NCBI GenBank assembly: GCA_965203315.1
Contig: OZ241857.1
Location: 1,632,001-1,696,000 of the forward strand
Direction of reading: 5' to 3'
Length of the DNA: 64,000 nucleotides
From: Nitrosopumilus sp.
GTDB taxonomy: Archaea; Thermoproteota; Nitrososphaeria; Nitrososphaerales; Nitrosopumilaceae
The notes below the pieces were generated by a model that saw only the letters and a program-made list of their open reading frames with translations, was not told the origin of the DNA and did no database searches. Positions 9,818 through 24,114 of this stretch are shown piece by piece; the first letter of the stretch is position 1; each line of letters begins with the position of its first letter. The translations under genes and the position numbers were made by a program.

Positions 9818-10173
9818 CTCTGTTTACAGATTTTTACAAGAGCTTGCTTGAACTAGCAGAGCAGTATGAAGAACAAGGTCTATCACTTAGAATAGATAGC
9901 GATCTAGAACAAGGATCGATTCATGTTCATGGCGAGCACTCGACACAAGTCACTCAAGCAAGAGACGGTCTAAATTATGCACTCGAACTTGCATACACCA
10001 CATCTGAACATCATCCATATTGGGGATTATTGCATCATGCTGTACAAACAGCATCTGTAGTTTTAGAGAAGTGGAATGATGATATGTCTGATGAGGACTG
10101 GGATGAGATTCAATGGATGGTACAAGAATTAAATCATATACTTGAGAGGGAAGAATCTACTAGGCAGAGATAA
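9814..10173 (+). CDS. Hypothetical protein
   Basis: Acidic ORF; ATG overlaps the stop of the upstream gene (ATGA coupling). Confidence 0.7.
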   Translation: MTLFTDFYKSLLELAEQYEEQGLSLRIDSDLEQGSIHVHGEHSTQVTQARDGLNYALELAYTTSEHHPYWGLLHHAVQTASVVLEKWNDDMSDEDWDEIQWMVQELNHILEREESTRQR

Positions 10174-10197
10174 ATATTCTGGACACTCATTTGCTGT

Positions 10198-11403
10198 ATG
10201 TCGATCAAACTTGGATTGATAGGCAAAACCAATACTGGCAAGACCACCTTCTTCAACTCTGCAACATTGTCATCTGGCGAGATCTCGTCATACCCGTTTA
10301 CAACAAAACGCCCCGAGTTTGGAGTGGGTCATGCTATAACACTATGTGTTCATCCAGAGTTTAAACTACAAGATGATCCAAACAACTCCAAATGTAGTGA
10401 TGGATGGCGTTACATTCCCATCGAGTTGATCGATCTACCTGGTTTGATAAAAGGTGCATGGTCAGGTAAGGGACTTGGAAATCAATTTCTAACAATTGCA
10501 GCACAATCAGATGCACTGTTACATATAGTCGATGCCTCTGGCGGAATAGATGCAACTGGAAAGATCACTACAACTGGAACAGGTGATCCAATATCAGATC
10601 TTGCGGATATCGAAGAAGAGCTGGTAATGTGGTATAACAAGATATTTGAAGGCAATAGAGACAAAGTATCCAAACTGATTAGAGCAGGTTCTGATACCGA
10701 GTCTGCGATATCAGATCTATATCGTGGAATAGGTGTAAATCGTGATCACGTAAAGAACGCAATCGCCTCTGCCCAACTCGAGTCCAAACATATCGATGAT
10801 TACACTATATCTGATAGTAAACTCTTTGCAGGGTGTCTGAGGCGATTCTCCAAGCCTACGTTGATTGTAGCAAACAAGATCGATGTCGAAGGTGCAGACA
10901 AGAACTTTATTCGATTGCAAGAACGATATCGTGACTCGATCGTGATTCCTGCTAGTGGTGATAGCGAGTACAGTCTTCGACTAGCTGAACAACGTGGTCT
11001 CATCCGATACTCGCCTGGCTCGGAGCAGTTTGAGATACTCCAACAAGACAAACTAAACACTAAACAGCTTGATGCCTTGGACTTTATCAAACGAGGCATA
11101 ATGGGAGAGTATATGCGAACTGGAGTACAGTTTGCAGTAAACGTTGCTGTGTTCAAGTTATTGAAGATGAACTCGATATATCCAGTGGCTGATGCTGATA
11201 AACTCTGCGACAAACAAGGACGTGTTCTACCTGATCTCATTCTATTAAAAGATGGTGCAAATATAGGTGATCTTGCTAAAGAGATACACACCGATCTCAC
11301 AAAAGGTCTGCTGTATGCCAAAGATGTGCGGTATAACCTCAGACTTCCTATCGACTATCAGCTTCGGGATCGAGATGTCGTATCACTAGTCAACGCAATA
11401 TGA
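10198..11403 (+). CDS. ychF: OBG-family YchF-like ATPase/GTPase with TGS domain
   Basis: GKTNTGKTT, YPFTT, DLPGL, NKID; C-terminal TGS (AKEIHTDL). Confidence 0.9.
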   Translation: MSIKLGLIGKTNTGKTTFFNSATLSSGEISSYPFTTKRPEFGVGHAITLCVHPEFKLQDDPNNSKCSDGWRYIPIELIDLPGLIKGAWSGKGLGNQFLTIAAQSDALLHIVDASGGIDATGKITTTGTGDPISDLADIEEELVMWYNKIFEGNRDKVSKLIRAGSDTESAISDLYRGIGVNRDHVKNAIASAQLESKHIDDYTISDSKLFAGCLRRFSKPTLIVANKIDVEGADKNFIRLQERYRDSIVIPASGDSEYSLRLAEQRGLIRYSPGSEQFEILQQDKLNTKQLDALDFIKRGIMGEYMRTGVQFAVNVAVFKLLKMNSIYPVADADKLCDKQGRVLPDLILLKDGANIGDLAKEIHTDLTKGLLYAKDVRYNLRLPIDYQLRDRDVVSLVNAI

Positions 11404-11579
11404 GATCTCTTTCTAGCTCTTGTTCGCAGTACTGCCTTACAACATATGCAACGAGTATCGTTTATACACATAAAGATGTCACAAAAAGTACATCGCTTTT
11501 GTCCTATCTCGTATCTGATCTTATTTGGTGCAGGCTTGGCTTTATACATACAACATATGTTTCGACACGTTCTACCCAT
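11358..11579 (-). CDS. Small Cys-rich Zn-finger protein
   Basis: CRNIC, CTFC, CICC. Start overlaps the end of the second tfb, so probably co-transcribed. Confidence 0.65.
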   Translation of the reverse strand: MGRTCRNICCMYKAKPAPNKIRYEIGQKRCTFCDIFMCINDTRCICCKAVLRTRARKRSHIALTSDTTSRSRS

Positions 11580-12468
11580 CTAGATCATCTCCCACAACTT
11601 GACGAATCTCTCTTGTCCTATCTCGAATAGTTACAGCACTAATTCCTGACACATCTGCGATTTTTACTTGTGATATATTCTCTGCATTTATTATAGAAGC
11701 TAGATGTATAGCAGCAGCGGCCATCGCCACTGGATTCTTACTCGTTGTAATGTTCTTTCTTTGAGCAATATCTAGTATGTCTAGTGCACACCTCTCTGTC
11801 CTCTCTGATACCGGAATCGATTTTGCAATTCTTGGTACAAACTCGATTGGACTATATGCGACCGGCGTGATATCCATCTTTTTTATTATAAATCGATATA
11901 TCTTTTGTAGATTCTTCTTTTTGATGTTTCCTGCTGTTGCAATGTCTTGAAGTGTTCGTGGGGTATTTGTGAGTCTACATGTTATGTATATTGCAGCACA
12001 CAGTGCACTAGTAGTTGATCGTCCAGATAGTATCTTCTTTGCTACCATCTTTCTAAAAAAGTGCGCTGTCTGTTCAACTATTGGCTCTGGCAACCCAAGC
12101 CGACCTGCCATGCCATCTAGTAGAATGAATGCTTTCTGAAACGACTTGGTCGACAAGGCATATCTGCTGTTTCTGTCCCACATCCTTAAACGATAGAACA
12201 TTCGTTTATTCTCACTTGACAGATCCCTGCCAGTAACATCTTTGTCTTTTGACTCGATGATTGTAGACAGTCCCATGTCTACCATCTTTAACGAGATCTT
12301 TTGTCCAGTTCTAGATTCGTTATAATGTTCTCCAGTACTCTCAGGTCCTGTGTAAAACACTCTCTCTGAACAGACTGCACCACAATTACTACAAGCAATC
12401 TCGCCTGTATGATAATCTGTAACTATATTACTACTCTTGCAATCTGCCTGATGAACTATCTCTACCAA
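11572..12468 (-). CDS. tfb: Second, divergent transcription initiation factor B
   Basis: DYHTGEIACSNCG, DMGLSTII, RLRMWD, TPRTLQDI, GISAVTIRDR. B-reader EWR motif is absent. Confidence 0.9.
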   Translation of the reverse strand: MVEIVHQADCKSSNIVTDYHTGEIACSNCGAVCSERVFYTGPESTGEHYNESRTGQKISLKMVDMGLSTIIESKDKDVTGRDLSSENKRMFYRLRMWDRNSRYALSTKSFQKAFILLDGMAGRLGLPEPIVEQTAHFFRKMVAKKILSGRSTTSALCAAIYITCRLTNTPRTLQDIATAGNIKKKNLQKIYRFIIKKMDITPVAYSPIEFVPRIAKSIPVSERTERCALDILDIAQRKNITTSKNPVAMAAAAIHLASIINAENISQVKIADVSGISAVTIRDRTREIRQVVGDDLDG

Positions 12469-12519
12469 TATGTTGTATATTGTCTTTGAAATTATTTAAA
12501 GCGACAATCATATTCAAAC

Positions 12520-12558
12520 TAGTGCTAAACCAGGTATTTACAAAAACTTTTGGCACCA
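12520..12558. promoter_or_regulatory. Two degenerate operator half-sites upstream of the second tfb
   Basis: TAGTGCTAA (12520-12528) and TTGGCACCA (12550-12558), each one mismatch from TAGTGCCAA/TTGGCACTA. Another TAGTGCTAA lies at 12702. Confidence 0.55.
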
Positions 12559-12814
12559 TGTCGTAAATACATACATAGTTAAATTCTCAAATATGCGCTA
12601 AATTTTATGTCTTGTGTTTTGTTTACCATTTGTAGATTTTACATAAAACCTATGATCAACTTTGAGTCGTGTCAACCATTGAATCATACACGTCTGAACT
12701 CTAGTGCTAAAGATGTTAATTCAAATATCTTGATAGACATCTCTGCAAATTCGTTATCGTCTAGATATACTAGGCACGGTTTTAAATCATATTCAACTTG
12801 TACGTGATGTATAG

Positions 12815-13252
12815 ATGAGTTACTCTTTTCGACTACAATCTCACTCCTCACTCCCACAATCGGTATTGTACAAGATAAGTACAGATATTTCCAACTTTGA
12901 TAAAGTCATGCCTAATCACTTTCGTTCAATTGATATAGTAAAGTCTAGTGCCAACACGATCACAACCAAGGAGCATATCGTCTTTTTACATATTCCGATA
13001 ACTATCAAAGTACATCACAAGATTGTACCGCCGGATATGCATCAAGTAGATATCTCGAGTGGACCATTTTCTGGCACGCAGTTTGTTGAGCGCTATACAC
13101 CTCATCATACTGGAACAATTATAACTATAGATGTGACACTCCCTTGCTATCTACAACTCTTTAAACCTGTTAGATATCTCGTATCCAAAATAATGCTTAA
13201 TACCTTGGAGCAATTTGTTATGTCTGCAGAGATGTACGAGTCCAAGAGATAG
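12815..13252 (+). CDS. SRPBCC/polyketide-cyclase-like ligand-binding protein
   Basis: LYKISTDISNFDKVMPNHF and ISSGPFSGT...GTIITI pattern of START/SRPBCC folds. Confidence 0.7.
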   Translation: MSYSFRLQSHSSLPQSVLYKISTDISNFDKVMPNHFRSIDIVKSSANTITTKEHIVFLHIPITIKVHHKIVPPDMHQVDISSGPFSGTQFVERYTPHHTGTIITIDVTLPCYLQLFKPVRYLVSKIMLNTLEQFVMSAEMYESKR

Positions 13253-13270
13253 TTGGCACTATAGTGCAAA
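13253..13270. promoter_or_regulatory. Near-perfect 18-bp palindromic operator TTGGCACTATAGTGCAAA
   Basis: One mismatch from a perfect dyad. Lies just upstream of the TATA-like AATAAATAT (13282) of the FAD oxidoreductase gene. Confidence 0.7.
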
Positions 13271-13310
13271 TAGCTTTGCAGAATAAATATCTTGATTATG
13301 TATGCTGATC

Positions 13311-14645
13311 ATGGTTTATGATGTTTTAGTAATTGGTGCCGGAGTTGGCGGATTGTCATCAGCTGCACTGTTGGCAAGACAAGGTTACTCTGTCAAAGTC
13401 GTCGAGCGTGCAGAGAAGGTTGGCGGCAGAATTGCATCTACTGTGTATCGCAACCATATATTGGATAATGGTTTTCATATAATGCCTTTTTATAAAAAAT
13501 CAGCAATCTATTCTATACTGAAAGAACTTGGGATAGAGTCAAGGTTACGTCTTGCCAAAGTTGATAACATTGCATTTTATGATAACGAATTTTATCGATA
13601 TCCAAAAGGGATTACAGATATTCTTCGAATGTCGATGATTCCAATAAAAAGTAGATTTCAATTATTGCGTCTATTACTTCCACTCGCATTCTCTTCTGTA
13701 TCGAGAACAGAACAATGGGATGATACTCCTCTTACAAACATAACTCATAATCTAGATTCGGCCACATCAGCATTCTTTGAAGCAGTATGCATGCTGGCGT
13801 TTGCTGACACTGCAGAACACATATCTCTAGGCGAGTTTGCGCGTACTATAATTCGAGCAAATCCATTCAAAGGAGGTACTAGCGAATTTGCATATCCACA
13901 CTCTGGTGGATACGATGCTATTACTAACCTCTTGGCAGACTATATTCATGAAGCAGGAGGTGAGATAGAGACAAGTTCTAGAGTACAACAGGTGATGGTC
14001 AAAGATTCAAAAGCAGTTGGTATTAAATTTGATTCAGGCGAATCTTTAAACGCACGATCAATAGTGATATCGTTTCCTGCATATCTTGCTCTACATCAAC
14101 TCTTTGAACCAAATATTATAGATCCCAAGTTTGTCGCAAAGATAGATCAACTCAACAAAACTACATCTGTGGTCGAAGTTCATTTTGCGCTACGATCACA
14201 GCTCGACTCTAGACAAGTGATCTTTCCTGTAGGGGACTATGTCACTAAAGGAATATTCTTCATCTCAAATATCACACCAAAAGTATCTCCTCTTGGAGAG
14301 CATCTGATAATTGCAGGCACACCTGTACCGCCTTCAATCCCAAAGAATCCTAGCAAGGTTAGAGACGTTGTTGATAAAATGAAACAAGAGATATCAACTA
14401 TCTATCCAAAATTCAAATCTGAACTCATCTGGGAGATGCCAAAAGCATGGAGTCTAGTCGAGTCAGTAGTCAAGGAACCAGGCAAGGTGTGGTTATCCAA
14501 GATGCCACACCAGATATCTGGAATTGACGGTCTATTCTTTGTAGGTGATTCTACTGTAAGCTATGGGATTGGAACCGACTCTGCTGCGCACAGCTCTATA
14601 CTATGTCATCCAAAGATCAATACCTATCTGTCAAATACTTCGTAA
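13311..14645 (+). CDS. Phytoene-desaturase-like FAD-dependent oxidoreductase
   Basis: DVLVIGAGVGGL...VERAEKVGGR, LDNGFH, YPHSGG, GLFFVGD. Confidence 0.85.
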   Translation: MVYDVLVIGAGVGGLSSAALLARQGYSVKVVERAEKVGGRIASTVYRNHILDNGFHIMPFYKKSAIYSILKELGIESRLRLAKVDNIAFYDNEFYRYPKGITDILRMSMIPIKSRFQLLRLLLPLAFSSVSRTEQWDDTPLTNITHNLDSATSAFFEAVCMLAFADTAEHISLGEFARTIIRANPFKGGTSEFAYPHSGGYDAITNLLADYIHEAGGEIETSSRVQQVMVKDSKAVGIKFDSGESLNARSIVISFPAYLALHQLFEPNIIDPKFVAKIDQLNKTTSVVEVHFALRSQLDSRQVIFPVGDYVTKGIFFISNITPKVSPLGEHLIIAGTPVPPSIPKNPSKVRDVVDKMKQEISTIYPKFKSELIWEMPKAWSLVESVVKEPGKVWLSKMPHQISGIDGLFFVGDSTVSYGIGTDSAAHSSILCHPKINTYLSNTS

Positions 14646-15473
14646 GATCTTTGGAATCTCATCAAGCTCAACATCGCCTACGACACGTGCTGCAAGTTTA
14701 GGGATATCTTTGGTGTGCAATGCATATCCACCAACTAGGATCGGTTTGTTGTATGTGTCATTGATCTTTTTGATCAATCTCTGACCTGCTACTATGTTCT
14801 CAGGCAGAGTTATTGAAACAAAGACTACGTCAGGATCATTATCTCTAATAAAGTCTAGAATCGCTCTAGTTGGAATAGATGTTCCCATATTGTATACTCT
14901 ATATCCTCTTGTAGTTAGATACGTCTCTAGTACATCACATCCTAGATGGTGCTCTTCGCCCACCGGAACACAGATCATTATCTTCTTTTTATTCCCTTTA
15001 TTGGATACGCGACTCATGATTATCTTTATCAATGTCTGTGCAACGTTACTTGCTACATGCTCGGTGGCAATTCCAATCTTACCGTTGGCCCAATCCTGAC
15101 CTATATCCTTCATGACTGGTCGTAATATCTTGTCAAAAAATCCTGCCTCCGCAAAAGATTTCGCATACATGTCGTATATCTTTAAACACTCTTGAATATC
15201 TCCTTCTGTCAATTTCTGGTACAGATTCTTCTTTGATCTATTTGTTGCTCTATCTCTTTTTTTGATATCTTTTGGACTATGTGCTGCAAGAGCAGAGAGT
15301 ATCTTTGGGTCGTTGCGATATTGTACTGGAATATCATCTTGTTCAACTTGTGATGCTTTTCCGAGATACTTTACTATCTTTTGCTTTGACGTGTTCTGTT
15401 TAGAGTCCCAGACACTCTTTACCAAGTATAGATACCTGTCCGACTTTATCTTCTTGACTCTGATGTATACCAT
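14631..15473 (-). CDS. Cobalamin-binding CarH/LitR-like regulator with non-MerR N-terminal domain
   Basis: W-x9-EH (WANGKIGIATEH) cap motif; EEHHLG...VSIT...VGG B12 Rossmann motif; basic beta-rich N-terminus. Confidence 0.85.
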   Translation of the reverse strand: MVYIRVKKIKSDRYLYLVKSVWDSKQNTSKQKIVKYLGKASQVEQDDIPVQYRNDPKILSALAAHSPKDIKKRDRATNRSKKNLYQKLTEGDIQECLKIYDMYAKSFAEAGFFDKILRPVMKDIGQDWANGKIGIATEHVASNVAQTLIKIIMSRVSNKGNKKKIMICVPVGEEHHLGCDVLETYLTTRGYRVYNMGTSIPTRAILDFIRDNDPDVVFVSITLPENIVAGQRLIKKINDTYNKPILVGGYALHTKDIPKLAARVVGDVELDEIPKILRSI

Positions 15474-15504
15474 CTGTTTGATATGTCTGCTTTTGATATA
15501 TAAC

Positions 15505-15598
15505 TAATGCCAATTTTACAATATAGTGCCAACTTTTTGTTATTTACTTGGCACTATAAAGTATTTTTAACACTAGTTTAAATTCATAGTAGTGCCAT
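15505..15598. promoter_or_regulatory. Divergent promoter with five operator half-sites
   Basis: TAATGCCAA 15505, TAGTGCCAA 15524, TTGGCACTA 15548, TTAACACTA 15567, TAGTGCCAT 15590. They flank TATA-like elements near 15497 (minus strand) and 15577 (plus strand). Confidence 0.75.
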
Positions 15599-15607
15599 GA
15601 TATTCTA

Positions 15608-16945
15608 ATGAAAAAGACAGTTCTCGTAACAGGATGCACTGGCTTCATTGGTTCTAGACTGATATCACGGCTTGGAGAATTAGACTATAGTGTACTGGGA
15701 ATGAGTCGACGAGATCTAGATGATACAGATAACATTAGATATGTCAAAGCTGATGTCTTTGATCTAGACAACCTGATAGATGCCATGCGTGGAGTTGATG
15801 TAGCATATTATCTACTACATTCGATGGAAGGCAGTCGAGACAAGTGGCAACAGTTTGCAGGACGAGAGAGAATACAAGCACAGAACTTTCTCAAAGCAGC
15901 TACTATCTGTGGAGTAAAGAGGATCATATATCTTGGCGGTCTAGTTGATGACTCTCTAGATCTATCCCCTCACATGAAGAGTCGAATAGATGTTGGTAAA
16001 ATATTGGCATCTGGTGATATTCCTGTAACTGAACTTCGAGCATCTATAATTATTGGTGCACAGAGTGGCTCTTTTACAATGTTGCGTTATCTGGTAGAGC
16101 GACTATCTGTAATGATATGTCCTTCGTGGGTAAACTCTCTTGCGCAGCCAATCGCAGTTGGTGATGTAATCGAATATCTTGTTAGATGTATAGGGGTTGA
16201 TGAGACAGAAGGTAAGATATTTGAGATTGGTGGTCCAAAACAACTCACCTACAAGGATCTACTATATGCCTATGCCGAATACCTTGGCAAAAATATCTAC
16301 ATCTTGCAGATCCCATTTCTCACAACTAGACTCTCTTCGTACTGGGTTGATCTGATAACTCCTGTCAAAGCAGCACTTGCACGTCCACTAGTGGATAGTC
16401 TTGTACACGATACAGTTGTGACTAGTAGACCTATACACGATCTCATTCCTTTGAAACTCAAGTCATTTGAAGAAGCGATCGATATAGCAGTACATGAGAT
16501 GAGTGATTCCCCTCCACATCTCAAACTAACAGAGAAGACAAGTTTTTGTACAAATCAACGAATTCTTCAAGTGTCACTGGTCGCAATGATGATCATAGGT
16601 ACTACATACTATTGGCTAGATGACAGATCAGATGTCTTTCATGTACTGTGGCTGTTTGCTGCGTTCTTGTGGTATACATCTTGCATCTCTGCAATCTTTT
16701 TGATCCAAAAGAAGACTCGACTTGGATATGTTCTTGCTGGTATATTGTCGTGGATAACTCTGGCATTCTGGCTCTTTGACAACTATTATGTTGTATTTGG
16801 TGATACAGCTATTGCTGGTATGCCAAATGATGCGATGACTAGTCGTAACTTTGTCGGAATGTTTGTAGCGGCCATCTCTATCGTTGCATCACATAACCTA
16901 TTTCACAAGATTGTAAAGTATCAGTTTAAGGGAAGACAAATCTAG
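15608..16945 (+). CDS. YbjT-like NAD(P)-binding atypical SDR with C-terminal membrane domain
   Basis: VTGCTGFIG, AYYLLHSM, IIYLGGL, ELRASIIIG, QPIAVGDV, WVDLITPV; about four hydrophobic helices at the C-terminus. Confidence 0.85.
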   Translation: MKKTVLVTGCTGFIGSRLISRLGELDYSVLGMSRRDLDDTDNIRYVKADVFDLDNLIDAMRGVDVAYYLLHSMEGSRDKWQQFAGRERIQAQNFLKAATICGVKRIIYLGGLVDDSLDLSPHMKSRIDVGKILASGDIPVTELRASIIIGAQSGSFTMLRYLVERLSVMICPSWVNSLAQPIAVGDVIEYLVRCIGVDETEGKIFEIGGPKQLTYKDLLYAYAEYLGKNIYILQIPFLTTRLSSYWVDLITPVKAALARPLVDSLVHDTVVTSRPIHDLIPLKLKSFEEAIDIAVHEMSDSPPHLKLTEKTSFCTNQRILQVSLVAMMIIGTTYYWLDDRSDVFHVLWLFAAFLWYTSCISAIFLIQKKTRLGYVLAGILSWITLAFWLFDNYYVVFGDTAIAGMPNDAMTSRNFVGMFVAAISIVASHNLFHKIVKYQFKGRQI

Positions 16946-17119
16946 TACGTGATATTTTCATATATGACGAACCATGTCAATGATCTCTACAAGATAAATT
17001 TTCAGATGGTAATATGTGATTATATTACATACACTAGAATTTAGAACTTGATCTTTACAGATACTATGATTCTGATATAAACCTCAATAATTTTTATATC
17101 TGCCTTGCCGTTGTTTAAT

Positions 17120-17983
17120 ATGTCTAAATCACAAGAGAATACTGAATATATGTTGTGTAATGTATGCTTTGAACCATTTATGTATAATGATGTAAAATGG
17201 CTCCCAGAGAAGACAAAGTATTTTTCTAACAAAAATTTTAAACACGTACTTAAGGGTCTCGAAGATAAATCATTTGTTGAGTCATTTAAGAAAAAAAGAA
17301 AAGAGATGCTGGATTTGCAAAAGAGATTTCATAATGGTGATTATGACTCGATCGTAGATGACTTTATAAATATGCATAAAGTAGGTATAGAAATCGAAGA
17401 AATTAAGATGTACAAGATTCATATGTTGAATGTTGTTAAAAGACTGCGTAATAATTTAGATGATGACATGAAACGACATGTGGATAACCTTACGCAGTAT
17501 CCTGGACTAGTATTTGGCTGCTATGATTTTTCATATACCTCGAGGTGTCCACACTGCACGTTCCCAACAGTTCTAGTGTGGCGTGGACACGAGTCACTAA
17601 AGCGCTGTATAAAAATTAAGAGCAAGGATGACGACGACAAGAGTACATTTAGATGTATATCGTGCAGTACCGAATTGATTGCAGAGCACCATATTTGGAA
17701 ACGTGTTGATACTCCTAAAGGCATATATCTGGAAACCATCTGTCAAAAATGCAATAAAGCACAACCATATCCCTATGGTTTCAATTCCCTTTCAAATGTA
17801 GTCGAGAGTGGAGGACCACACTCTAGAATAGAATATGAAAAAATTCCTAAATGGATGATCACTGTACCTAGGTCGTATATTTGTGTTGATATTGGAGTAT
17901 TGGATTCTCAAATATACACTGTACCTGACAACAGAGAGATTGCGGACGCTGCATCGATTCTATTTACATTCTGGAAAAATTGA
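17120..17983 (+). CDS. Hypothetical protein with four CxxC pairs (family member 2, long subtype)
   Basis: Paralog of 1369-2277 (YPGLxFGCYxF, WxGHESLKR, KSTFRCxSC, ELIAEH, VESGGPH). Confidence 0.8.
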   Translation: MSKSQENTEYMLCNVCFEPFMYNDVKWLPEKTKYFSNKNFKHVLKGLEDKSFVESFKKKRKEMLDLQKRFHNGDYDSIVDDFINMHKVGIEIEEIKMYKIHMLNVVKRLRNNLDDDMKRHVDNLTQYPGLVFGCYDFSYTSRCPHCTFPTVLVWRGHESLKRCIKIKSKDDDDKSTFRCISCSTELIAEHHIWKRVDTPKGIYLETICQKCNKAQPYPYGFNSLSNVVESGGPHSRIEYEKIPKWMITVPRSYICVDIGVLDSQIYTVPDNREIADAASILFTFWKN

Positions 17984-18413
17984 CCCATGTGTTGATGATC
18001 TGAATGTGCTTGTTAGACTGTGGCAATTGCTTTTTGAGTCCCTCCTCAATGAAGTCTATTTTTAATATGATTGATCACAATAACTGATGTCAAGTTAGCA
18101 GAAAAGACAAGAGCCGATAAACCAGATATCTCTAGAGACATGAACATAACATTTTGATAGACAAACATGAAAGAGATATGTTAAAGAACATTTAGCAATT
18201 GTGATCGAAGAACTGGAATCCAAACTTGCATGATTCCAACATAATTACGTGATTGGTCATCTTGAGTTTTCTATCGCTGGGTATGTCAGGATCTATTGTA
18301 GTCTTGCTCAAATATAATCAATTATTATTTGGATTTATTGATTTGTCGTCAATCATATCTGAATTACTGTGCAGATATAGTATAAAAAACCTAATGAATA
18401 AAAGTATCTGCTA

Positions 18414-19568
18414 ATGGTCAATTCTGTTGATATTCGTCATGCTCTACTAGATCAATGGAATCGACAACTAGCTCAACATACTTTGTACCACTCAGACTCG
18501 TTAAGTGGTGCCAGTCCACCATCTGTATTTGTAGGATCGTATGGATACCCCAAAGTGCTTGTAGGACCTATGGTTCCGCCAACACACGGTGACACAAGTC
18601 TACTCGATAGTCCAGAACAATGGAAAGATATGTCGCTTGATGAGATCATAAACTTTAGACTCAATCTAGTTCGTGGTACGCAAAAGACGCCTATCGATCA
18701 AACAGATACTAGATACATACAAGAACTCCAAGTATTGAGCATGTCATCAAGACCTATCGATACTGATCTAGAATTTGATCAACCGATCAAGCCTATTGTA
18801 TCACTTGACGATCACAGTCCTGTATTTGGTCCAATGGGACAGATAACTAATGCTCGATTTGGTTCTGCATCTACACTTCGACCTATTGAGAGAGTCTTTT
18901 ACGATCGAGATCTTGGCGCAGCAGATGCTGTATTGAATCTATATCGAGCAGATGTCGAGATCTCTAGAATTCAACGTTGTTTTAGTATTGGTATGTTGGG
19001 TAAGAGTCGATCTCTAGTACCAACTCGTTGGAGTATTACTGCAACCGACGATATCATATCGAGATCTCTTGCTGATGATATCTTGGATCACTCTCTCATC
19101 GACTCTTGTATGGTGTTCACATATGCACATCTTGGAAACAAGTTTGTTGTAATACTGTTTCCGCACAGATGGCTCTATGAGATGATCGAGGCATGGTACT
19201 CTGATGGTGTATTGGGGTTTGGTTCTGATCATGAAGATGCACGTGGGATATCACATCCGCCAGCAATTGCTGGCGCATACTTTGCTGCTAAACTTGGCGT
19301 CTTGGAGTATCTTTCACATATACAGAGACAGGCTGGAGTCTTGATATTGCGTGAGATCAGTCCCGAGTATGCGCTTCCGGTCGGAGTATGGCAGATTCGT
19401 GAAGGTGTGCGGGCAGCTATGCAACAGATGCCCATAATGCTTGAATCCTTTGATGTTGCACTAGACGTGGCTACAAAGATGACAAACATTGCCACCCACG
19501 AGTGGCTTAAACACGGTCACATCTTCGAGATGCTTAGACAAAAGGTGTTGTCTGATTTTGTGATATAA
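18414..19568 (+). CDS. nreA: Archaeal DNA repair protein NreA (DUF650/DUF651)
   Basis: SPPSVFVGSYGYPKV, LVPTRWSITATDD, GAYFAAKLGVLEYL, PVGVWQIRE; C-terminal PIP box QKVLSDF. Confidence 0.9.
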   Translation: MVNSVDIRHALLDQWNRQLAQHTLYHSDSLSGASPPSVFVGSYGYPKVLVGPMVPPTHGDTSLLDSPEQWKDMSLDEIINFRLNLVRGTQKTPIDQTDTRYIQELQVLSMSSRPIDTDLEFDQPIKPIVSLDDHSPVFGPMGQITNARFGSASTLRPIERVFYDRDLGAADAVLNLYRADVEISRIQRCFSIGMLGKSRSLVPTRWSITATDDIISRSLADDILDHSLIDSCMVFTYAHLGNKFVVILFPHRWLYEMIEAWYSDGVLGFGSDHEDARGISHPPAIAGAYFAAKLGVLEYLSHIQRQAGVLILREISPEYALPVGVWQIREGVRAAMQQMPIMLESFDVALDVATKMTNIATHEWLKHGHIFEMLRQKVLSDFVI

Positions 19569-20073
19569 CTGATGTAAAGAGATCTCGCTGTGGTTCAGAG
19601 TACAGCAAAAAGTATGTTTGGTTGGCAAGATATGTTTTATTAAATTTGTAAATTATGGGGTTTATCGTAGCCAAGACTGTTCCTAACATTAACTCCTTAC
19701 GCTTGTATTTGTCTATCAATGCAATAAACGACATCTTTTCATTATGATCAAATTCATTCGAAAAATGTCCAAAGACGTGCATTATGACATTACTATGTGT
19801 CTTGATGGTTGGCTGTCGTTCTAACACTAGATGTAGATCTTTTTCGTATTTGGTTAGAATATTGTTCATCTCTCCATGTTTATAACTTGCAACTATTCTA
19901 CCAAGTGTCTTTAGTTTAGATTGGTCACGGGACATTATCAGATACTTGTTTCTCGCATGAAACTCTACTAGATGACGAATTCTAGCTAGTCTCTTAATGT
20001 GGTTGAATCTAGATGACACGAACTCGGTAATATCGCTATCTGATATCTCACTAGTTCCATTTGCTGACTCCAT
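19534..20073 (-). CDS. DUF1722 (YbgA C-terminal-like) protein
   Basis: LVEFHARNKYLIMS, HSNVIMHVFGHF, YLANQTYF. Confidence 0.85.
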   Translation of the reverse strand: MESANGTSEISDSDITEFVSSRFNHIKRLARIRHLVEFHARNKYLIMSRDQSKLKTLGRIVASYKHGEMNNILTKYEKDLHLVLERQPTIKTHSNVIMHVFGHFSNEFDHNEKMSFIALIDKYKRKELMLGTVLATINPIIYKFNKTYLANQTYFLLYSEPQRDLFTSVISQNQTTPFV

Positions 20074-20124
20074 CTATTTGATTTATGATCCTATGAATAT
20101 AAAGTCAGATCTTTTATATTTGAT

Positions 20125-20176
20125 TTAGCACCAGATTTAGCTAAATTTGTTGGCACTATATTGAAAATTACCACTA
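20125..20176. promoter_or_regulatory. Operator half-sites in the divergent promoter of DUF1722 and the secreted protein
   Basis: TTAGCACCA 20125, TTGGCACTA(TATTGAAAA) 20150, TTACCACTA 20168; the last abuts TATA TTATATAT at 20179. Confidence 0.65.
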
Positions 20177-20208
20177 GCTTATATATCAAATTAACACATG
20201 TCTATTCA

Positions 20209-21090
20209 ATGAAAGCACAACTACTAGTACTGACACTTGTCGTAGTGATATCTACAATATCTGTCGCACATGCCGAAGTTCCTTCGTGGATAAAGAGTAC
20301 AGCAGGATGGTGGGCAGATGGTTCTATATCGGATGACGAGTTTCTCAGTGGTATCTCTTACTTGGTGACAAATGGATTCATAGACGTTCCGACTAGTACG
20401 CAGACATCTACATCCGATACAGTTCCTTCATGGATCAAGACTAATGCAGGATGGTGGGCAGATGGTTCTATATCGGATGACGAGTTTCTCAGTGGTATAT
20501 CGTTTCTGATAGGCGCAGGACTCATTACTGTCGGTACTGATACAACTCAAGATATTGAAAGTGGTGATCAAACCGAACTAGAGTTACTTGAATCAGAACT
20601 TGAAGAGTGTGCCAAGATTACTAGAGCTGTTGATCGAATAGACTGTGAAAAGCCTATCAAAGACGAGATCAAACTCTACGAGTACAAACAAGATTCGACA
20701 AAGTTTGTTGTAGGTCCAATAGTCTACTATTGGAAAGGTCTTGGCTCTGACGGAAATAGTTTCGAGATAAGCTCAAGTGGTCAAGCACTATTGAACATTC
20801 GAATGTTGGCAGAGAATACCGCCTCTGAGAATGTAGCACTACACTGCACTAGCCCGTCTATATGCAACTATGATGTATGGGATGGCTCCAAGTCATTCAA
20901 ATACTCTGGGATGGACTTCACTAGCGGCATGATAGTCATCAAGCCAGGCGCTGCAAAAGAGTTTAACATTCTGTTTGGACCAAACATTGGATATGGTGGA
21001 ACTCAGTTCATATATGATCCATCAAAGAACTACCAGTTTCGGATCAATGAGAACTTTGGAAGTGTCAACATTGATCTGCCACTGGAGTAA
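20209..21090 (+). CDS. Secreted protein with two thaumarchaeal VPSWIKxxAGWWADG repeats
   Basis: Signal peptide MKAQLLVLTLVVVISTISVAHA; duplicated domain visible in the DNA. Start moved to ATG 20209. Confidence 0.8.
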   Translation: MKAQLLVLTLVVVISTISVAHAEVPSWIKSTAGWWADGSISDDEFLSGISYLVTNGFIDVPTSTQTSTSDTVPSWIKTNAGWWADGSISDDEFLSGISFLIGAGLITVGTDTTQDIESGDQTELELLESELEECAKITRAVDRIDCEKPIKDEIKLYEYKQDSTKFVVGPIVYYWKGLGSDGNSFEISSSGQALLNIRMLAENTASENVALHCTSPSICNYDVWDGSKSFKYSGMDFTSGMIVIKPGAAKEFNILFGPNIGYGGTQFIYDPSKNYQFRINENFGSVNIDLPLE

Positions 21091-21104
21091 TTTTTTTTCT
21101 TAAC

Positions 21105-22505
21105 TTATTCCATTCTTATCTCTTCTCGTTTTATCCATATGGTTCTATCATCCTGATCCATTATCTCCACTCCCATGTTAATGACTCTCTGTCGTATCTC
21201 ATCTGCCGCATCAAATTTGGCCGATTTCCTTAAATCTCTGCGTCTTGAAATCAATGCATTGATCTCGTTCTTCTGCTCTGTAGTTACTGTGGACAGTCTT
21301 AGTCCCAATATGTCGATCATCTCTTGAAACTTTGACATTGTAGATTTGATACTCTCTTTTAACACGCCTTTTGCATCGAGACGGTTTATCTCTCTGATCA
21401 TATCGAACAGTGACGAGATCGCAAGATGCGTATTTAGATCTGACTCTAACGCCGCATAAAACTCTAGATGCAACTCTGTAATCTTGTTGTCATATGTACC
21501 ATGTGTACTGTGGCCTATGTCGTCTGTTGTATCTTGTACATGAATCATGGTATAGTAACATGTCTCGATCTGTCTCCACTTTGTGAGGCTCTCTCTGAGT
21601 AATTCTGGTGTATAATCGATCGGTTTTGAATAATGTCCTGATAGACAGAACAGTCGTATTATGTTTGGACCCCAATCTATCATGGCTTGACTGATCGATC
21701 TGATATTTCCAAGTGACTTTGACATCTTTGTACCCTGTATGGTTACCATCCCTACATGTAGCCAAATCTTTGCCATTGGGGTACTAGTGCATGACTCTGA
21801 TTGGGCGATCTCGTTCTCATGATGTGGGAATATCAGATCCCTTCCTCCTCCATGTATGTCAAAACTATCCCCCAAGTACTTGGCACTCATAGCAGAACAT
21901 TCGATATGCCAACCTGGTCTTCCCTTGCCCCAAGGACTATTCCAAGAAGGTTCTGTATCAGTAAACTTCCATACGGCAAAGTCTAGTGGATCTGACTTTT
22001 TCTCATCTATCTGAATTCTTGCACCTGCCTTTAGCTCATCGATCTTCTTCTTTGATAGTTTACCATATTCGGCAAATTTGGCAACTGCAAAATAGATTCC
22101 ATTATCTGTTACATATGCTGTATTGTTCTGTATCAGAGCTCCAACTAGACGTATGATATCTGCAATATGTTCAGTTGCTTTTGGGTACGATGTCGCACGC
22201 AATATGTTCAGCTTGTCTGCATCTACAAAGTATTGATCGATATATCTAGTACTGATCTCTTTGGCACTCATTCCTTCAGTATCTGCTCGTGATATTATCT
22301 TGTCATCTACATCGGTAAAGTTTTGAATCATCACTACTTTGACCCCCTTTGACTCTAGATATCGTCGCAATACATCAAAGACTATGATAGTTCTTGCATG
22401 ACCAATATGTGACTCGTCATATACGGTAACACCACATAGATAGATCTTGACCGTCTCTTGTTCTAAAATTATCTGTGTATCCGATAATGTGTCATGTAGT
22501 TTCAT
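21105..22505 (-). CDS. cysS: Cysteinyl-tRNA synthetase
   Basis: [26 protein letters not shown]. Confidence 0.97.
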
Positions 22506-23290
22506 TTGTGATCCCTTGGGTCTTGCGGTATGATTCGTTTGTGATGTGTGTTCTTGTTTAGTGATATGATCTGCTGTATCGTACTAGAATCTATCTGTGT
22601 TGTTTTTGCAATCTCTGATACATCCATACCTTTTTCCATGCAATATATGATCGAGTCGATCTCTTCATACGTTGCACCAATCTCATCTTGAGCGTCATGA
22701 TCGGACCATAGATGTGGGCTACTCTTCTTTGAGATGATCTCTGTCGGTACTCCTAGATACTTTGCAATCTCTCTTATCTGAAGTTTATACATCGACGAGA
22801 TTGGTACAATGTCTGCTGCTCCATCACCAAACTTTGTAAAGTATCCCAACATGTATTCACTCTTGTCGCTAGTTCCCAAAACTAGATATCCTTTTACATT
22901 TGCATAATAGTATAGAATATTTGCTCGCACCCGTGCCCTTAGATTTCCTTTGGCTCGTTTGTTTGGCTCTATGTACATAGAATATTCATTTACTATTGGT
23001 TTGATATCGATTAACTTGTATGCTATGCCTGTCAACGCAACTACTTTGAGCGCGTCTCTTGTCTCTTGTTCTGGAGTGATATCGGTATCTGGCATTACTA
23101 TGCCTAACGCCTTGTTTCCAAGTTCTTTACATAGATATGCAACAACAGACGAGTCTATTCCACCACTGAGTCCAAAGATCACACCTTGAGAGTCTTGATG
23201 TGCCATCTCTTTTATGATGCCGTCTCTAATCTCTGATACGATCTGTTTATAGTCTTGATTCTTTATGTTGTCGATTATAGTTTGATTCAA
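22502..23290 (-). CDS. nadE: NH3-dependent NAD+ synthetase
   Basis: GLSGGIDS, GNLRARVR, GYFTKFGDG. Start probably TTG 23290 rather than the longer ORF start. Confidence 0.92.
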   Translation of the reverse strand: MNQTIIDNIKNQDYKQIVSEIRDGIIKEMAHQDSQGVIFGLSGGIDSSVVAYLCKELGNKALGIVMPDTDITPEQETRDALKVVALTGIAYKLIDIKPIVNEYSMYIEPNKRAKGNLRARVRANILYYYANVKGYLVLGTSDKSEYMLGYFTKFGDGAADIVPISSMYKLQIREIAKYLGVPTEIISKKSSPHLWSDHDAQDEIGATYEEIDSIIYCMEKGMDVSEIAKTTQIDSSTIQQIISLNKNTHHKRIIPQDPRDHK

Positions 23291-23525
23291 CTGTTGGTAT
23301 GAATCTGCTTGGGAATTAAAAAGTTGTACTGCATCATGTACATCGTACTGTACATCGTCTGTACATTGTATAATGTACATCGTATATTCACGTGTATAGA
23401 GGGGGACACTATTGATACAAAAAACAAGATAACGTCGATCATTACTATGGAAACCTAATATCATGCTCGTATAATGTCGTATGTGTCAAGTTGTATGTCT
23501 TGTACTATGAATCATGTACGATAAA

Positions 23526-23828
23526 TCAAATGTCCACATAGATCCCATCGTCTCTTGTCTCTATTGGATATGTTGTCAGTTTGACATCTTTGAGATAATC
23601 GACCAACTCGCCGGTTTTAATGTTATAGTGCCAAAAGTGTAATGGACACTCTACTATGTTGCCGTCTAGTTTTCCAGGCGCAATTGAACCATCTTGATGA
23701 ACACAGAGATCGTCTAGTGCGTGATATCCATCTTGATTGAATATGGCGATCTGTTTGTCATCGATCTTGAAAGATTTACCTTTTCCTGATGCAATATCGC
23801 CCTTTTCGGCAACCTTTTTCCATGCCAT
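23526..23828 (-). CDS. Rieske [2Fe-2S] ferredoxin
   Basis: CVH...CPLH Rieske motifs, 100 aa. Confidence 0.92.
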   Translation of the reverse strand: MAWKKVAEKGDIASGKGKSFKIDDKQIAIFNQDGYHALDDLCVHQDGSIAPGKLDGNIVECPLHFWHYNIKTGELVDYLKDVKLTTYPIETRDDGIYVDI

Positions 23829-24114
23829 ATTTGTATCAACATTAGTTGCTGTTTATTTAGATTCGTAATGATCTATAACAAGATGTTACGTTGTTTTTGA
23901 TACTCAGACAAGAACTGGATATCTGATTGTGGCATTTGTAAAACAGTTCACCCAATCATTTGATGTGCTCACCTTCAGACTCCTCGTCAATACATGTTCT
24001 TTCTTTTGTGGGTTGCCTTTTGATAAATACGACTGATAGTCTTTTATGACCGTCCTTTAGAGACATGTGTGTCCTATCATAGTTGTACTGTTTCATGACC
24101 AGAACAATTGGATC

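Follow-up and report, generated by a model that had tools for sequence, protein, structure and literature searches.

A direct-repeat promoter element next to a CarH-type B12 regulator gene in Nitrosopumilaceae, and its possible role as a light-responsive operator

The 10-mer found before about seven neighbouring genes in the window examined here, a 64,000-nt stretch of Nitrosopumilus DNA, is a conserved control site. With a confidence only a little above even (about 0.55), we regard it as an operator half-site for the 280-aa B12 regulator encoded next to it, which would act on archaeal promoters as a CarH-like repressor released by light. The regulator most likely controls an island of genes for protection against sunlight and UV. 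We infer binding by the regulator, the sign of the regulation and light as the signal.

Results

The motif is enriched in the window and confined to the regulator's island

The exact 9-mer TTGGCACTA occurs six times in the window against 0.31 expected, and none of 100 shuffles got to six. An exact search recovered the five copies of the original prediction (12946 and 15524 on the minus strand; 13253, 15548 and 20150 on the plus strand), whose statement that none lies outside 12.9-20.2 kb was wrong because a sixth is found at 23626-23634 (-); this copy has no in-register TATA box, and its number is that expected by chance. When up to one mismatch was allowed, the 9-mer search gave 29 matches versus 11.8 expected. 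The near-copies listed earlier were recovered as one-mismatch (12520, 12550, 12702, 13262, 15505 and 15590) or two-mismatch sites (15567, 20125 and 20168, with position weight matrix scores of 11.3, 15.6 and 14.9). The matrix, built from 156 orthologous sites and used at a score of 14 or more, matched the window 11 times where 1.1 matches were expected from 30 dinucleotide shuffles, none of which gave more than 4, and 10 of the 11 matches fall in 12401-20300 (7.9 kb). The motif is thereby confirmed as real and non-random.

Across 80 related Nitrosopumilaceae loci (1.22 Mb) there are 675 matches, versus about 46 per Mb in random sequence, concentrated from roughly -5 kb to +6.5 kb relative to the regulator gene start and about 31-fold denser in non-coding (1.87 per kb) than in coding DNA (0.06 per kb). 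The motif lies upstream of the regulator in 74/74 cases, the 109-aa gene in 23/23, the secreted protein (cluster 2) in 63/68, the 118-aa gene in 37/40 and the FAD oxidase in 45/50. Rather than being spread irrespective of the genes it precedes, it is kept to the island round the regulator, with no upstream match for any of 27 flanking housekeeping gene clusters. The motif is also conserved in orthologous promoters: two copies exactly 19 bp apart are present in all 78 regulator promoters examined (those of 77 loci and of the window, 3 further loci having been set aside for a truncated match), 77 of which are distinct in sequence, and the information content of the two sites is 1.69 and 1.46 bits per position, versus 0.13-0.26 for the flanks and spacer.

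The conserved unit is an oriented direct repeat in register with the TATA box

The original prediction took a palindrome as the unit. The comparison of the 80 loci refutes this, the conserved unit being an oriented 10-mer with the family consensus TTAGCACTAG (in the window, TTGGCACTA[T/G]), arranged as direct repeats 18-19 bp apart and locked in fixed register to the TATA box. Of the neighbours in the same orientation, 144 pairs have a spacing of 19 bp and 50 pairs one of 18 bp, with hardly any other spacing; the orientation is strictly that of transcription, and a TATA-like element begins 0-2 nt or 18-21 nt past the site. In the mirrored control for this spacing, the only departures from a flat profile were peaks at 21-22 nt and lesser rises (17-18 counts) at 5 nt and at 15-16 nt. 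The proximal copy falls at the expected BRE position, and some promoters, among them those of the TFB and 118-aa genes, retain the distal copy alone. The palindrome at 13253/13262 was rejected as a general feature; it is peculiar to the window, and none of the 45 listed members of the FAD-oxidase cluster has it in its promoter. The 10-mer also differs from the operators of CarH, which are tandem 11-bp repeats of the form nnnnTnnACAn (PMC9304148), a point against the operator reading.

Promoters and genes of the island

The sites and genes of the window are collected in Table 1. The mirrored 19-bp array proposed for the divergent promoter is read directly from the sequence (15505/15524 on the minus strand, 15548/15567 on the plus strand). 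On the regulator side, where a TTAwATA element is conserved, the proximal site abuts the TATA box and thus occupies the BRE position, and the distance of the TATA box from the ATG implies a leaderless or short-leader mRNA. The extra inverted copy before the SDR gene, not found in the SDR promoters of the relatives listed, may be a chance occurrence or a window-specific auxiliary site. The SDR gene belongs to cluster 4, which was found in 55 loci.

Table 1. Motif copies, promoter elements and genes of the island in the window
Feature	Position	Strand	Remarks
Island-specific TFB paralogue, 298 aa, predicted target	11572..12468	-	Pfam TFIIB, Zn_Ribbon_TF
Single site, TFB promoter, TTAGCACTAG	12519..12528	-	18 nt upstream of TATA-like TTTAAATA (12493-12500, -)
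Mirror site TTGGCACCAT	12550..12559	+	TTAAATT 19 nt downstream
Orphan full-consensus site TTAGCACTAG	12701..12710	-	no in-register TATA box
SRPBCC-like protein, 145 aa	12815..13252	+	weak Polyketide_cyc match (E=0.024)
Site TTGGCACTAG within SRPBCC-like CDS	12945..12954	-	no in-register TATA box
Distal site, FAD-oxidase promoter, TTGGCACTAT	13253..13262	+	directly past upstream stop codon
FAD-dependent amine-oxidase / phytoene-desaturase-superfamily enzyme	13302..14645	+	Pfam Amino_oxidase 1.8e-33
Regulator gene, 280 aa (P0001)	14631..15473	-	Pfam B12-binding_2 (residues 83-151), B12-binding (165-253)
Regulator TATA box, putative, TTATATAT	15496..15503	-	by consensus; ~25 nt before ATG at 15473
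Proximal site, regulator promoter, TTGGCATTAG	15504..15513	-	TATA-like element 1 nt further; orthologous position kept 78/78
Distal site, regulator promoter, TTGGCACTAT	15523..15532	-	19 bp upstream of proximal; spacing 78/78
Distal site, SDR promoter, TTGGCACTAT	15548..15557	+	TATA-like element 19 nt further
Proximal site, SDR promoter, TTAACACTAG	15567..15576	+	adjoins TATA-like TTTAAATT at 15577-15584
Extra inverted one-mismatch copy ATGGCACTA	15590..15598	-	between SDR TATA box and ATG
SDR/NmrA-like NAD(P)-binding protein, 445 aa, predicted target	15608..16945	+	Pfam Epimerase, NAD_binding_10, NmrA
DUF1722 protein, predicted target	19534..20073	-	Pfam DUF1722 1.3e-31
Far site TTAGCACCAG	20125..20134	+	on - strand, 21 nt from TATA-like TTTATAT (20097-20103) of DUF1722 gene
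Distal site, secreted-protein promoter, TTGGCACTAT	20150..20159	+	exact 9-mer
Proximal site, secreted-protein promoter, TTACCACTAG	20168..20177	+	18 bp from distal; abuts TATA box TTATATAT (20179-20186)
Secreted protein, 293 aa, predicted target	20209..21090	+	N-terminal signal-like segment; duplicated VPSWIK...GWWADGSISDDEF

The geometry of the TFB promoter is the same in relatives. In a quick tree the island TFB falls in a separate clade (SH-aLRT 100); 55 of its 59 rows have the motif upstream, which is true of just one row out of 24 in the remaining TFB clades. The SRPBCC-like gene and a 66-aa ORF (12607-12807) lie in the direction of the promoter at 12550, whose counterpart in relatives drives the 118-aa gene (cluster 7); the window lacks this gene, with which the SRPBCC-like gene of relatives is, judging from gene order, co-transcribed. 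The site at 12945 does not recur in orthologous coding sequences, cluster 6 not being among the clusters with internal matches. At the FAD-oxidase promoter, the TATA-like AATAAATAT begins about 20-21 nt past the 13253 site and the proximal position has degenerated in the window; the enzyme, which probably starts at the ATG at 13311, gave partial NCBIfam matches to PRK07233, HpnE and the CrtI family, all under the cut-off. Orthologous divergent regions have an inverted site like that at 20125 in 49 of 50 cases, and a TATA-like element then lies at a distance of 21-25 nt; the three-site layout of the secreted-protein/DUF1722 region is likewise seen in relatives. Several small genes of no assigned function also stand behind motif-bearing promoters. 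As for the gene calls of the original prediction, Pfam upheld the B12-binding_2/B12-binding, SDR (Epimerase/NmrA), Amino_oxidase, DUF1722 and TFIIB assignments, the SRPBCC call has only the weak match given in Table 1, and the secreted-protein call agrees with a signal-peptide-like N-terminus judged by eye.

The regulator has a complete CarH-type B12 signature and an unclassified N-terminal domain

The identification of the neighbouring protein as a B12 regulator is supported by a complete CarH-type photoreceptor signature. Residues ~81-280 form a CarH-type B12-binding module of a four-helix bundle and a Rossmann fold, in which both Wx9EH (W128, E138, H139) and ExHxxG-x41-SxT-x25-GG (E173, H175, G178, S220, T222, G248, G249), as defined in PMC9304148, are invariant in 12 of 12 sequences. 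The first Foldseek matches were the B12 photoreceptors CarH, LitR and photocobilin (E~1e-11), and CarH was the best NCBIfam match.

Residues 1-~45 are modelled (pLDDT 94) as a three-stranded beta-sheet domain and not as a MerR domain. Comparison with Pfam, with PDB sequences and with known folds gave no match (best Foldseek E-values of 0.5 in PDB and 0.08 in BFVD), so that only domain context leads us to predict DNA binding. The domain is basic and nearly invariant, with R5 and K7 among its invariant residues, and elsewhere it is fused to the N-terminus of HNH endonucleases, as expected for a nucleic-acid-binding module. It is presumably the DNA reader, and linkage together with the autoregulation pattern makes the B12 protein the candidate binder of the motif.

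Discussion

Light and UV setting of the island

A photolyase gene is found inside the island in 10 of the 80 loci, following DUF1722 within 20-26 nt in eight of these and after 94 nt in a ninth, and a pyrimidine-dimer glycosylase is found in 11 loci. In relatives the motif lies beside the DUF1722-photolyase operon, in favour of the original prediction; neither a photolyase nor a UV glycosylase gene is present in the window, an observation that counts against the light/UV reading. The parallel drawn with bacterial LitR neighbourhoods held in part: according to PMC9758184, a Pseudomonas LitR region contains an FAD oxidoreductase and a short-chain dehydrogenase as well as phrB, but the main text of that paper makes no mention of DUF1722 or SRPBCC.

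Repression or activation

Several observations speak against the preferred reading of the motif as the operator of a light-released repressor. The co-orientation of the motif and its fixed distance from the TATA box would equally suit a promoter-selectivity element or an activator, the SDR-side tandem passes the thresholds used in just 39 of 78 orthologous regions, and two full-strength orphan sites, at 12701 and 12945, have no TATA box. Because the TFB and 118-aa promoters have the distal copy alone, occlusion of the BRE there would need a second domain on non-consensus DNA. The same protein could instead act at the same sites with the opposite sign, as an activator that recruits TFB/TBP from the distal copy, some 19 bp before the TATA box; it could do so in the light, or else in the dark, in which case light would turn the island off. 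We think this unlikely, even though it accommodates the constant distance of 18-21 nt between a site and the TATA box, the unvarying co-orientation with transcription and the promoters with only the distal copy; moreover, the 10 nt before the TATA box in these promoters are not A-rich, unlike the weak trend in 52 other promoters, and so may be poor BREs needing help. However, the best-conserved promoters have a copy right on the BRE position, where archaeal regulators usually repress. For protective genes such as photolyase one expects induction by light, and an activator in the AdoCbl-holo form would not provide it. The CarH and LitR relatives, moreover, are dark repressors (PMC9304148).

Other readers and other signals

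The motif might also serve the island TFB paralogue, which would read it as a promoter-selectivity element or extended BRE, with the B12 protein just one member of a TFB-specific regulon. The proximal copy exactly on the BRE position, the strict co-orientation and the divergent TFB clade (stem of 2.23 substitutions per site) that accompanies the island all suit such a role. It is nonetheless improbable, since a TFB reads only a few bases immediately upstream of the TATA box and the word recurs at 18-19 bp upstream of the first copy and once more ~30 bp beyond that, while neither the TFB's own promoter nor that of the 118-aa gene has the proximal copy. One locus (L062) has the regulator motif pair though its sole TFB belongs to the no-motif clade, and the invariant carrier of the motif is the regulator promoter (78/78), not the TFB promoter (55/59).

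We give equally little credence to a B12-status switch, in which the regulator would bind the motif but sense corrinoid supply or redox state. Ammonia-oxidizing archaea make cobalamin, a Peripla_BP_2 gene (BtuF-like family) lies within the island in 20 loci, and the tetrapyrrole genes GluTR and ALAD flank the island in Nitrosarchaeum-type loci; yet these three genes lack the motif (0/20, 0/13 and 0/13), and the motif-bearing clusters include no B12-dependent enzyme or B12-synthesis gene. Photolyase and UV glycosylase, on the other hand, lie in or beside motif-controlled units, and the Wx9EH cap, which marks AdoCbl photoreceptors (PMC9304148), is intact.

Least probable of all is a different reader, a DNA-binding protein that is unlinked or has gone unrecognised, with the B12 protein acting through its N-terminal beta domain as a light-dependent partner of it or of TFB on the model of the AerR antirepressor: the lack of a recognisable DNA-binding fold in that domain, a weak PDB sequence match to AerR (7te2, E=0.0044) and several island proteins of no assigned function would allow it, but the domain is basic, nearly invariant like the motif core and recurrent at the N-terminus of HNH nucleases, and no rival regulator is as widely conserved in the island, cluster 22 (weak TetR_C and DICT matches) occurring in only 9 loci.

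A possible light switch on archaeal promoters

Under the preferred reading of a light-released repressor, an AdoCbl-bound oligomer would in the dark set one DNA-binding domain on each repeat and block access of TFB/TBP to the regulator's own promoter and to those of the SDR, the FAD oxidase, the secreted protein, DUF1722 (with photolyase where present), the TFB paralogue and several small genes. Light would photolyse AdoCbl, the oligomer would dissociate and the island would be derepressed, and the TFB paralogue so induced may drive a second tier of genes.

Conservation and distribution of the motif

At the regulator promoter the motif is a clean phylogenetic footprint. Related loci were fetched with a 12-sequence alignment, one genome per species, and the best 80 of 128 confirmed loci were used, in which the regulator is 60-70% identical to the window protein; more than 1,600 same-length relatives of the regulator were found, and those that are named come from Nitrosopumilus or Nitrosarchaeum. 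When the regulator promoters of 77 of these loci were compared together with that of the window (three loci with an incomplete regulator match were left out), two same-orientation copies of the word were found exactly 19 bp apart in all 78, in a search that permitted 8-30 bp. The pair's presence in every regulator promoter compared runs counter to the lack of conservation that the original prediction had named as a ground for its refutation. The distal copy reads TT[A/G]GCACTA[G/T] and the proximal copy TT[A/G][G/C]CA[T/C][T/C]AG, which is followed immediately by TTA[A/T]ATA. All but one of the 78 promoter sequences are distinct. The two sites contain 1.69 and 1.46 bits of information per position and the TATA box 1.24, compared with 0.13-0.26 for the flanking DNA and the 9-nt spacer. 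Across the family the consensus is TTAGCACTAG, with the window favouring G at position 3.

A position weight matrix (PWM) built from the 156 sites of these promoters (two per promoter) gave 675 matches at a score of at least 13 in the 80 loci (1.22 Mb), compared with about 46 per Mb in random sequence. The matches are concentrated in the region from -5 to +6.5 kb relative to the regulator start, with only background levels further away, and their density is 1.87 per kb in DNA outside our crude ORF calls, compared with 0.06 per kb within these calls. The motif thus shows the general properties of a transcription-factor regulon, namely enrichment in non-coding DNA, conserved sites in unconserved flanks and recurrence before defined genes.

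Within the 64-kb window, TTGGCACTA has six exact matches against 0.31 expected, a number reached in none of 100 shuffles, and 29 matches with at most one mismatch against 11.8 expected. The five exact copies and all of the one- and two-mismatch copies originally described were recovered at their positions, as was the mirrored array in the divergent promoter (15505/15524 on the minus strand and 15548/15567 on the plus strand, 19 bp within each pair). At a PWM score of at least 14 there are 11 matches, compared with 1.1 on average and never more than 4 in 30 dinucleotide shuffles, and ten of the 11 lie within 12401-20300. A sixth exact copy, at 23626-23634 (-), had been missed in the original inspection by eye, in which none was noticed outside 12.9-20.2 kb. 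This copy (PWM match 23625) is inside a 100-aa ORF (23526-23828) with no TATA box in register, and it is consistent with chance, roughly one such match being expected per window. No further regulon members were found elsewhere in the window, where 23625 and seven weaker matches outside the island all lack an in-register TATA box.

The motif had been proposed to act as a palindrome. We rejected the palindrome as the functional unit, since the conserved spacing is that of direct repeats only and the inverted pair 13253/13262 is missing from the orthologous FAD-oxidase promoters listed.

Promoter geometry

Among 682 strong sites, the next site in the same orientation lies at 19 bp in 144 cases and at 18 bp in 50, and almost never at another distance. 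TATA-like elements start 0-2 nt after the site (counts of 25, 52 and 43) or 18-21 nt after it (88, 61, 217 and 96). In the mirrored control, which was otherwise flat, the counts peaked at 21-22 nt and rose less strongly (17-18 counts) at 5 nt and at 15-16 nt; the 21-22 nt peak is explained by the DUF1722 promoter, which has an inverted site, and in 49 of 50 DUF1722 divergent regions an inverted site stands 21-25 nt from a TATA-like element. Promoters of class 1, which have a distal copy, a proximal copy and a TATA box, precede the genes for the regulator, the SDR, the FAD oxidase, the secreted protein and a 109-aa protein, the secreted-protein promoter having an additional third copy further upstream. 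In class 2, found at the island TFB gene and the divergent 118-aa gene, the distal copy stands alone about 18 nt before the TATA box.

These arrangements do not fit a single general BRE, because the word is repeated upstream, at 18-19 bp and at about 30 bp, and some target promoters have no proximal copy. In lying at the BRE position directly next to the TATA box, the proximal copy resembles archaeal repressor sites that overlap the BRE and TATA box. Unlike such sites in general, the word is specific to the island, neither it nor anything similar being present in the 10 nt before the TATA box of 52 non-island promoters, and it recurs at -19 bp and further upstream.

Genes of the island and the predicted regulon

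Predicted regulated promoters and genes in the window (coordinates are window positions)
Feature	Position	Strand	Remarks
TFB promoter, predicted regulated	site 12519		TATA box 12493-12500
Rightward promoter, predicted regulated	site 12550		feeds 66-aa ORF and SRPBCC-like gene
FAD oxidase promoter, predicted regulated	site 13253
Regulator promoter, predicted regulated	sites 15504, 15523
SDR promoter, predicted regulated	sites 15548, 15567
DUF1722 promoter, predicted regulated	inverted site 20125		TATA box 21 nt away
Secreted-protein promoter, predicted regulated	sites 20150, 20168		spacing 18 bp
Second TFB gene	about 6335	+
TFB gene	11572-12468	-	Pfam
66-aa ORF	12607-12807
FAD amine-oxidase/phytoene-desaturase-superfamily enzyme	13302-14645	+	Pfam
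280-aa regulator	14631-15473	-	Pfam: B12-binding_2 and B12-binding; N-terminal 80 residues without Pfam domain
SDR/NmrA-like protein	15608-16945	+	Pfam
292-aa Cys-rich ORF	17105-17983	+	no Pfam or NCBIfam match
Nre protein	18414-19568	+	Pfam; NCBIfam: NreA DNA-repair relative, below cut-off
DUF1722 protein	19534-20073	-	Pfam
293-aa ORF, secreted protein	20209-21090	+	signal-like N-terminus, duplicated motif

Sites 12701 and 12945 are also of full strength and have no TATA box in register. No RNA element was found by Rfam in 10000-24000, and a scan for sigma-70 promoters returned 31 where 31.8 were expected from shuffles. The SRPBCC likeness of the 145-aa ORF is weak (E=0.024). In the secreted protein a segment of about 50 aa occurs twice (VPSWIK..AGWWADGSISDDEFLSGIS.L), and many relatives have two tandem paralogues of its gene. 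The interval 12469-12815 contains some 350 bp without a convincing gene; relatives have there a conserved 118-aa gene (cluster 7 of our blastp families, start MPHI...), to which the 66-aa ORF, the only ORF left in this interval of the window, shows no similarity, and the promoter site at 12550 is kept. The 292-aa Cys-rich ORF has no homologue in the 80 loci and occupies the slot held in many relatives by a Peripla_BP_2 (BtuF-like family) gene beside Nre. The Nre/NreA-type gene itself lies inside the island, convergent with DUF1722; its family (cluster 16) is present in 20 loci, none of which has the motif upstream of it. The second TFB gene belongs to the motif-free TFB clade (87% identity to L033_13112, from a related locus), and the window therefore contains two or more TFB paralogues that fall into different clades. 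Homologues of the 118-aa, 109-aa and 194-aa genes, the PNPOx-like gene, cluster 22 and the PPIase are absent from the window, as are photolyase, Pyr_excise (pyrimidine-dimer glycosylase) and Peripla_BP_2.

To count motif-bearing genes across the loci, ORFs (ATG start, at least 70 aa, greedy overlap removal) were clustered by blastp, a crude procedure in which some starts are wrong.

Gene families with the motif (score of at least 12) within -150 to +40 of the start
Family	With motif/total	Remarks
Regulator	74/74
109-aa protein	23/23
Secreted protein	63/68
118-aa protein	37/40
FAD oxidase	45/50
TFB	38/80	paralogues mixed
SDR	23/56
PNPOx-like protein	13/29
194-aa protein	21/37	inverted only
DUF1722	26/62	inverted only
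SRPBCC-like	8/47
Cluster 22 (181-aa)	6/13
PPIase (cluster 39)	4/8
Cluster 19	2/15
Pyrimidine-dimer glycosylase (cluster 33)	1/11
Cluster 27	1/12
27 other clusters, each in at least 8 loci	0 each

The DUF1722 count is lowered because the gene is often called from an internal ATG. At the SDR gene the proximal copies are degenerate and a small gene intervenes in many loci; of 78 regions searched more strictly, 39 have the mirrored tandem towards the SDR gene. The conserved gene order is secreted< DUF1722> (photolyase>) SDR< regulator> FAD-oxidase< SRPBCC< 118-aa< TFB>. By Pfam, a DNA photolyase is present in 10 of the 80 loci; in eight of the ten it is encoded on the DUF1722 strand and starts 20-26 nt beyond that gene, and in one more it starts after 94 nt. 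A pyrimidine-dimer DNA glycosylase is present in 11, downstream of the TFB gene in eight of them. In a quick maximum-likelihood tree of 83 TFBs the island TFB forms a clade of its own (59 rows, SH-aLRT 100, stem 2.23); the motif lies within 250 bp upstream in 55 of these 59 rows, compared with one of 24 in other clades.

One locus of a 2.8-Mb genome (L062, OZ243974.1, regulator at 10001-10843) keeps the regulator and its two promoter sites and has none of the usual island genes within 10 kb, so that the targets of this regulator must lie elsewhere or have been lost. In five Nitrosarchaeum-type loci (L007, L012, L017, L019 and L027), the tetrapyrrole precursor genes for glutamyl-tRNA reductase and ALA dehydratase adjoin the island and have no motif.

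The regulator protein

The cobalamin module of CarH is defined, in PMC9304148, by Wx9EH, which lies in a four-helix bundle and caps the upper face of AdoCbl, and by D/ExHx2G-x41-SxT/V-x22-27-GG. Both are present in the window protein, as W128-x9-E138-H139 and as E173-x-H175-xx-G178-x41-S220-x-T222-x25-G248-G249, and both are invariant in 12 of 12 sequences. The Pfam gathering scores were exceeded for B12-binding (PF02310; 45.6 against 32.1 bits) and B12-binding_2 (PF02607; 37.2 against 23), and sequence matches in the PDB were to photocobilins, CarH, LitR and methionine synthase. The AF2 model (mean pLDDT 78.5) has the cobalamin-module fold, with B12 photoreceptors ranked first by Foldseek (8j2w, 8c36, 5c8a, 5c8e and 3whp; E 1e-11 to 3e-10, TM at most 0.69 normalised to the target). 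The top NCBIfam model was CarH (NF052513), whose score of 59.3 bits is well below its cut-off of 400 and whose alignment is confined to residues 80-269, in the B12 module.

Residues 1-80 contain no MerR-type winged-helix domain and have no Pfam match. An AF2 model of this N-terminal domain from 45 sequences (pLDDT 94) has three long antiparallel strands, after which residues 56-65 form a helix. No relatives of the domain were found in Pfam at E up to 10 or by a PDB profile search; Foldseek gave no fold relative (best E 0.5 against the PDB and 0.08 against BFVD), and the score of 0.82 in the ESM Atlas was within the range of noise. A scan of 1.84 billion representatives identified 139 proteins with the domain at E ≤0.001, of which 29 were scanned against Pfam. 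Both B12 domains were found in eight of the nine scanned proteins of about 280-316 aa, P0192 (316 aa) having no Pfam match, and two proteins (P0257 and P0213) are fusions to HNH endonucleases. In the set P0257, P0213 and P0228-P0253 the domain is found, apart from these fusions, beside an unknown domain of about 110 aa, in proteins of 160-185 aa, and alone; among the 29 scanned, the 160-185-aa group and the short forms matched no Pfam family. Its consensus is M.[FY][IV]R[IV]KK.K...Y.YLV...W......Q..[IV]KYLG, with R5, K7, Y14, Y16, W22 and G38 invariant across architectures. We infer that the domain is a nucleic-acid-binding module from its occurrence in fusions to HNH endonucleases and from its surface, which is basic and invariant. 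A distant homologue that combines the beta domain with the B12 module (P0273) is labelled Thermoplasmata archaeon, and on the basis of this one named protein the regulator family may reach beyond Nitrosopumilaceae.

Discussion

Our results are most economically explained by a CarH-like device that has been remodelled to suit archaeal promoters. CarH and the class I LitR proteins of Thermus, Bacillus and Myxococcus are, according to PMC9304148, AdoCbl-dependent photoreceptor repressors whose operators overlap the -35 element, and the regulator resembles them in its two-domain C-terminal module, its motifs and its fold. It is also like CarH in the pattern of autoregulation, in having photoprotection gene neighbours and in direct repeats that lie over a core promoter element, which is the -35 element in bacteria and the BRE position in the archaeon. 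In both systems the number of full and degenerate repeats varies and degenerate repeats are tolerated (for CarH, PMC9304148). The operators themselves differ, the 10-mers TTAGCACTAG recurring every 18-19 bp where CarH, in that account (PMC9304148), has tandem 11-bp nnnnTnnACAn. Also unlike CarH, an unclassified three-stranded beta-sheet domain replaces the MerR winged helix, the promoters of the archaeal host use TBP and TFB, a TFB paralogue is putatively controlled, and a carotenoid pathway is not evident.

In the LitR-LitS system of Streptomyces and in CarQ-type cascades a light regulator controls an alternative sigma factor. The island is similar in that a gene for a dedicated basal-factor paralogue, here TFB in the place of sigma, lies beside the B12 regulator and has a promoter with the motif of that regulator. 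The likeness is architectural only; TFB itself is no sigma factor.

The class II LitR region of Pseudomonas contains photolyase, short-chain dehydrogenase and FAD-dependent oxidoreductase genes according to the main text of PMC9758184, in whose framing class II LitR is LOV-dependent with a chromophore other than B12. The neighbourhood studied here has the same gene types, a likeness that holds at the level of gene type. The parallel with LitR neighbourhoods drawn in the original prediction is supported in part, for photolyase, SDR and FAD oxidoreductase; DUF1722 and SRPBCC are absent from that main text (PMC9758184).

In the mechanism that we propose, an oligomer that depends on AdoCbl would bring its DNA-binding domains onto the direct repeats, one of which lies over the BRE, and light would release the oligomer from the repeats. 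A further-reaching reading is that in Nitrosopumilaceae, and possibly in Thermoplasmata, where there is one named homologue, an AdoCbl photoreceptor that binds DNA through a new beta-sheet domain would regulate access to the BRE and TATA box at an island for protection against UV and photo-oxidation and would control a dedicated TFB paralogue, in an archaeal parallel to the LitR-to-sigma-factor cascades of bacteria; we regard this as tentative and give it a probability of about 0.35. The same protein could instead act as an activator at these promoters, or a partner-switch model could apply. That the protein senses B12 status and not light is a further possibility, which in its pure form is made less probable by the B12-related neighbours, which are motif-free, and by the UV-repair genes. 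A reading of the motif by the island TFB is disfavoured by the distal and third copies.

These results offer a concrete system for testing, consisting of a sensor gene, a 10-bp putative operator word of defined geometry and a list of targets conserved across 80 genomes, and an optogenetic part might be made from the small beta domain and its 10-bp site. If the CarH-like reading is correct, B12-based photoreception would be extended to promoters of the archaeal TBP/TFB type, this class of B12 receptor would gain a new DNA-binding module, and a TFB paralogue would be tied to an environmental signal. Ammonia-oxidizing archaea rank among the major nitrifiers and cobalamin producers of the sea, and their light sensitivity has been invoked to explain where in the water column nitrification occurs. 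In open-access main texts we found no B12 photoreceptor, light sensor or light regulon in these archaea, nor this motif; the system described here would, if true, be the first sensory photoreceptor-regulon described in ammonia-oxidizing archaea.
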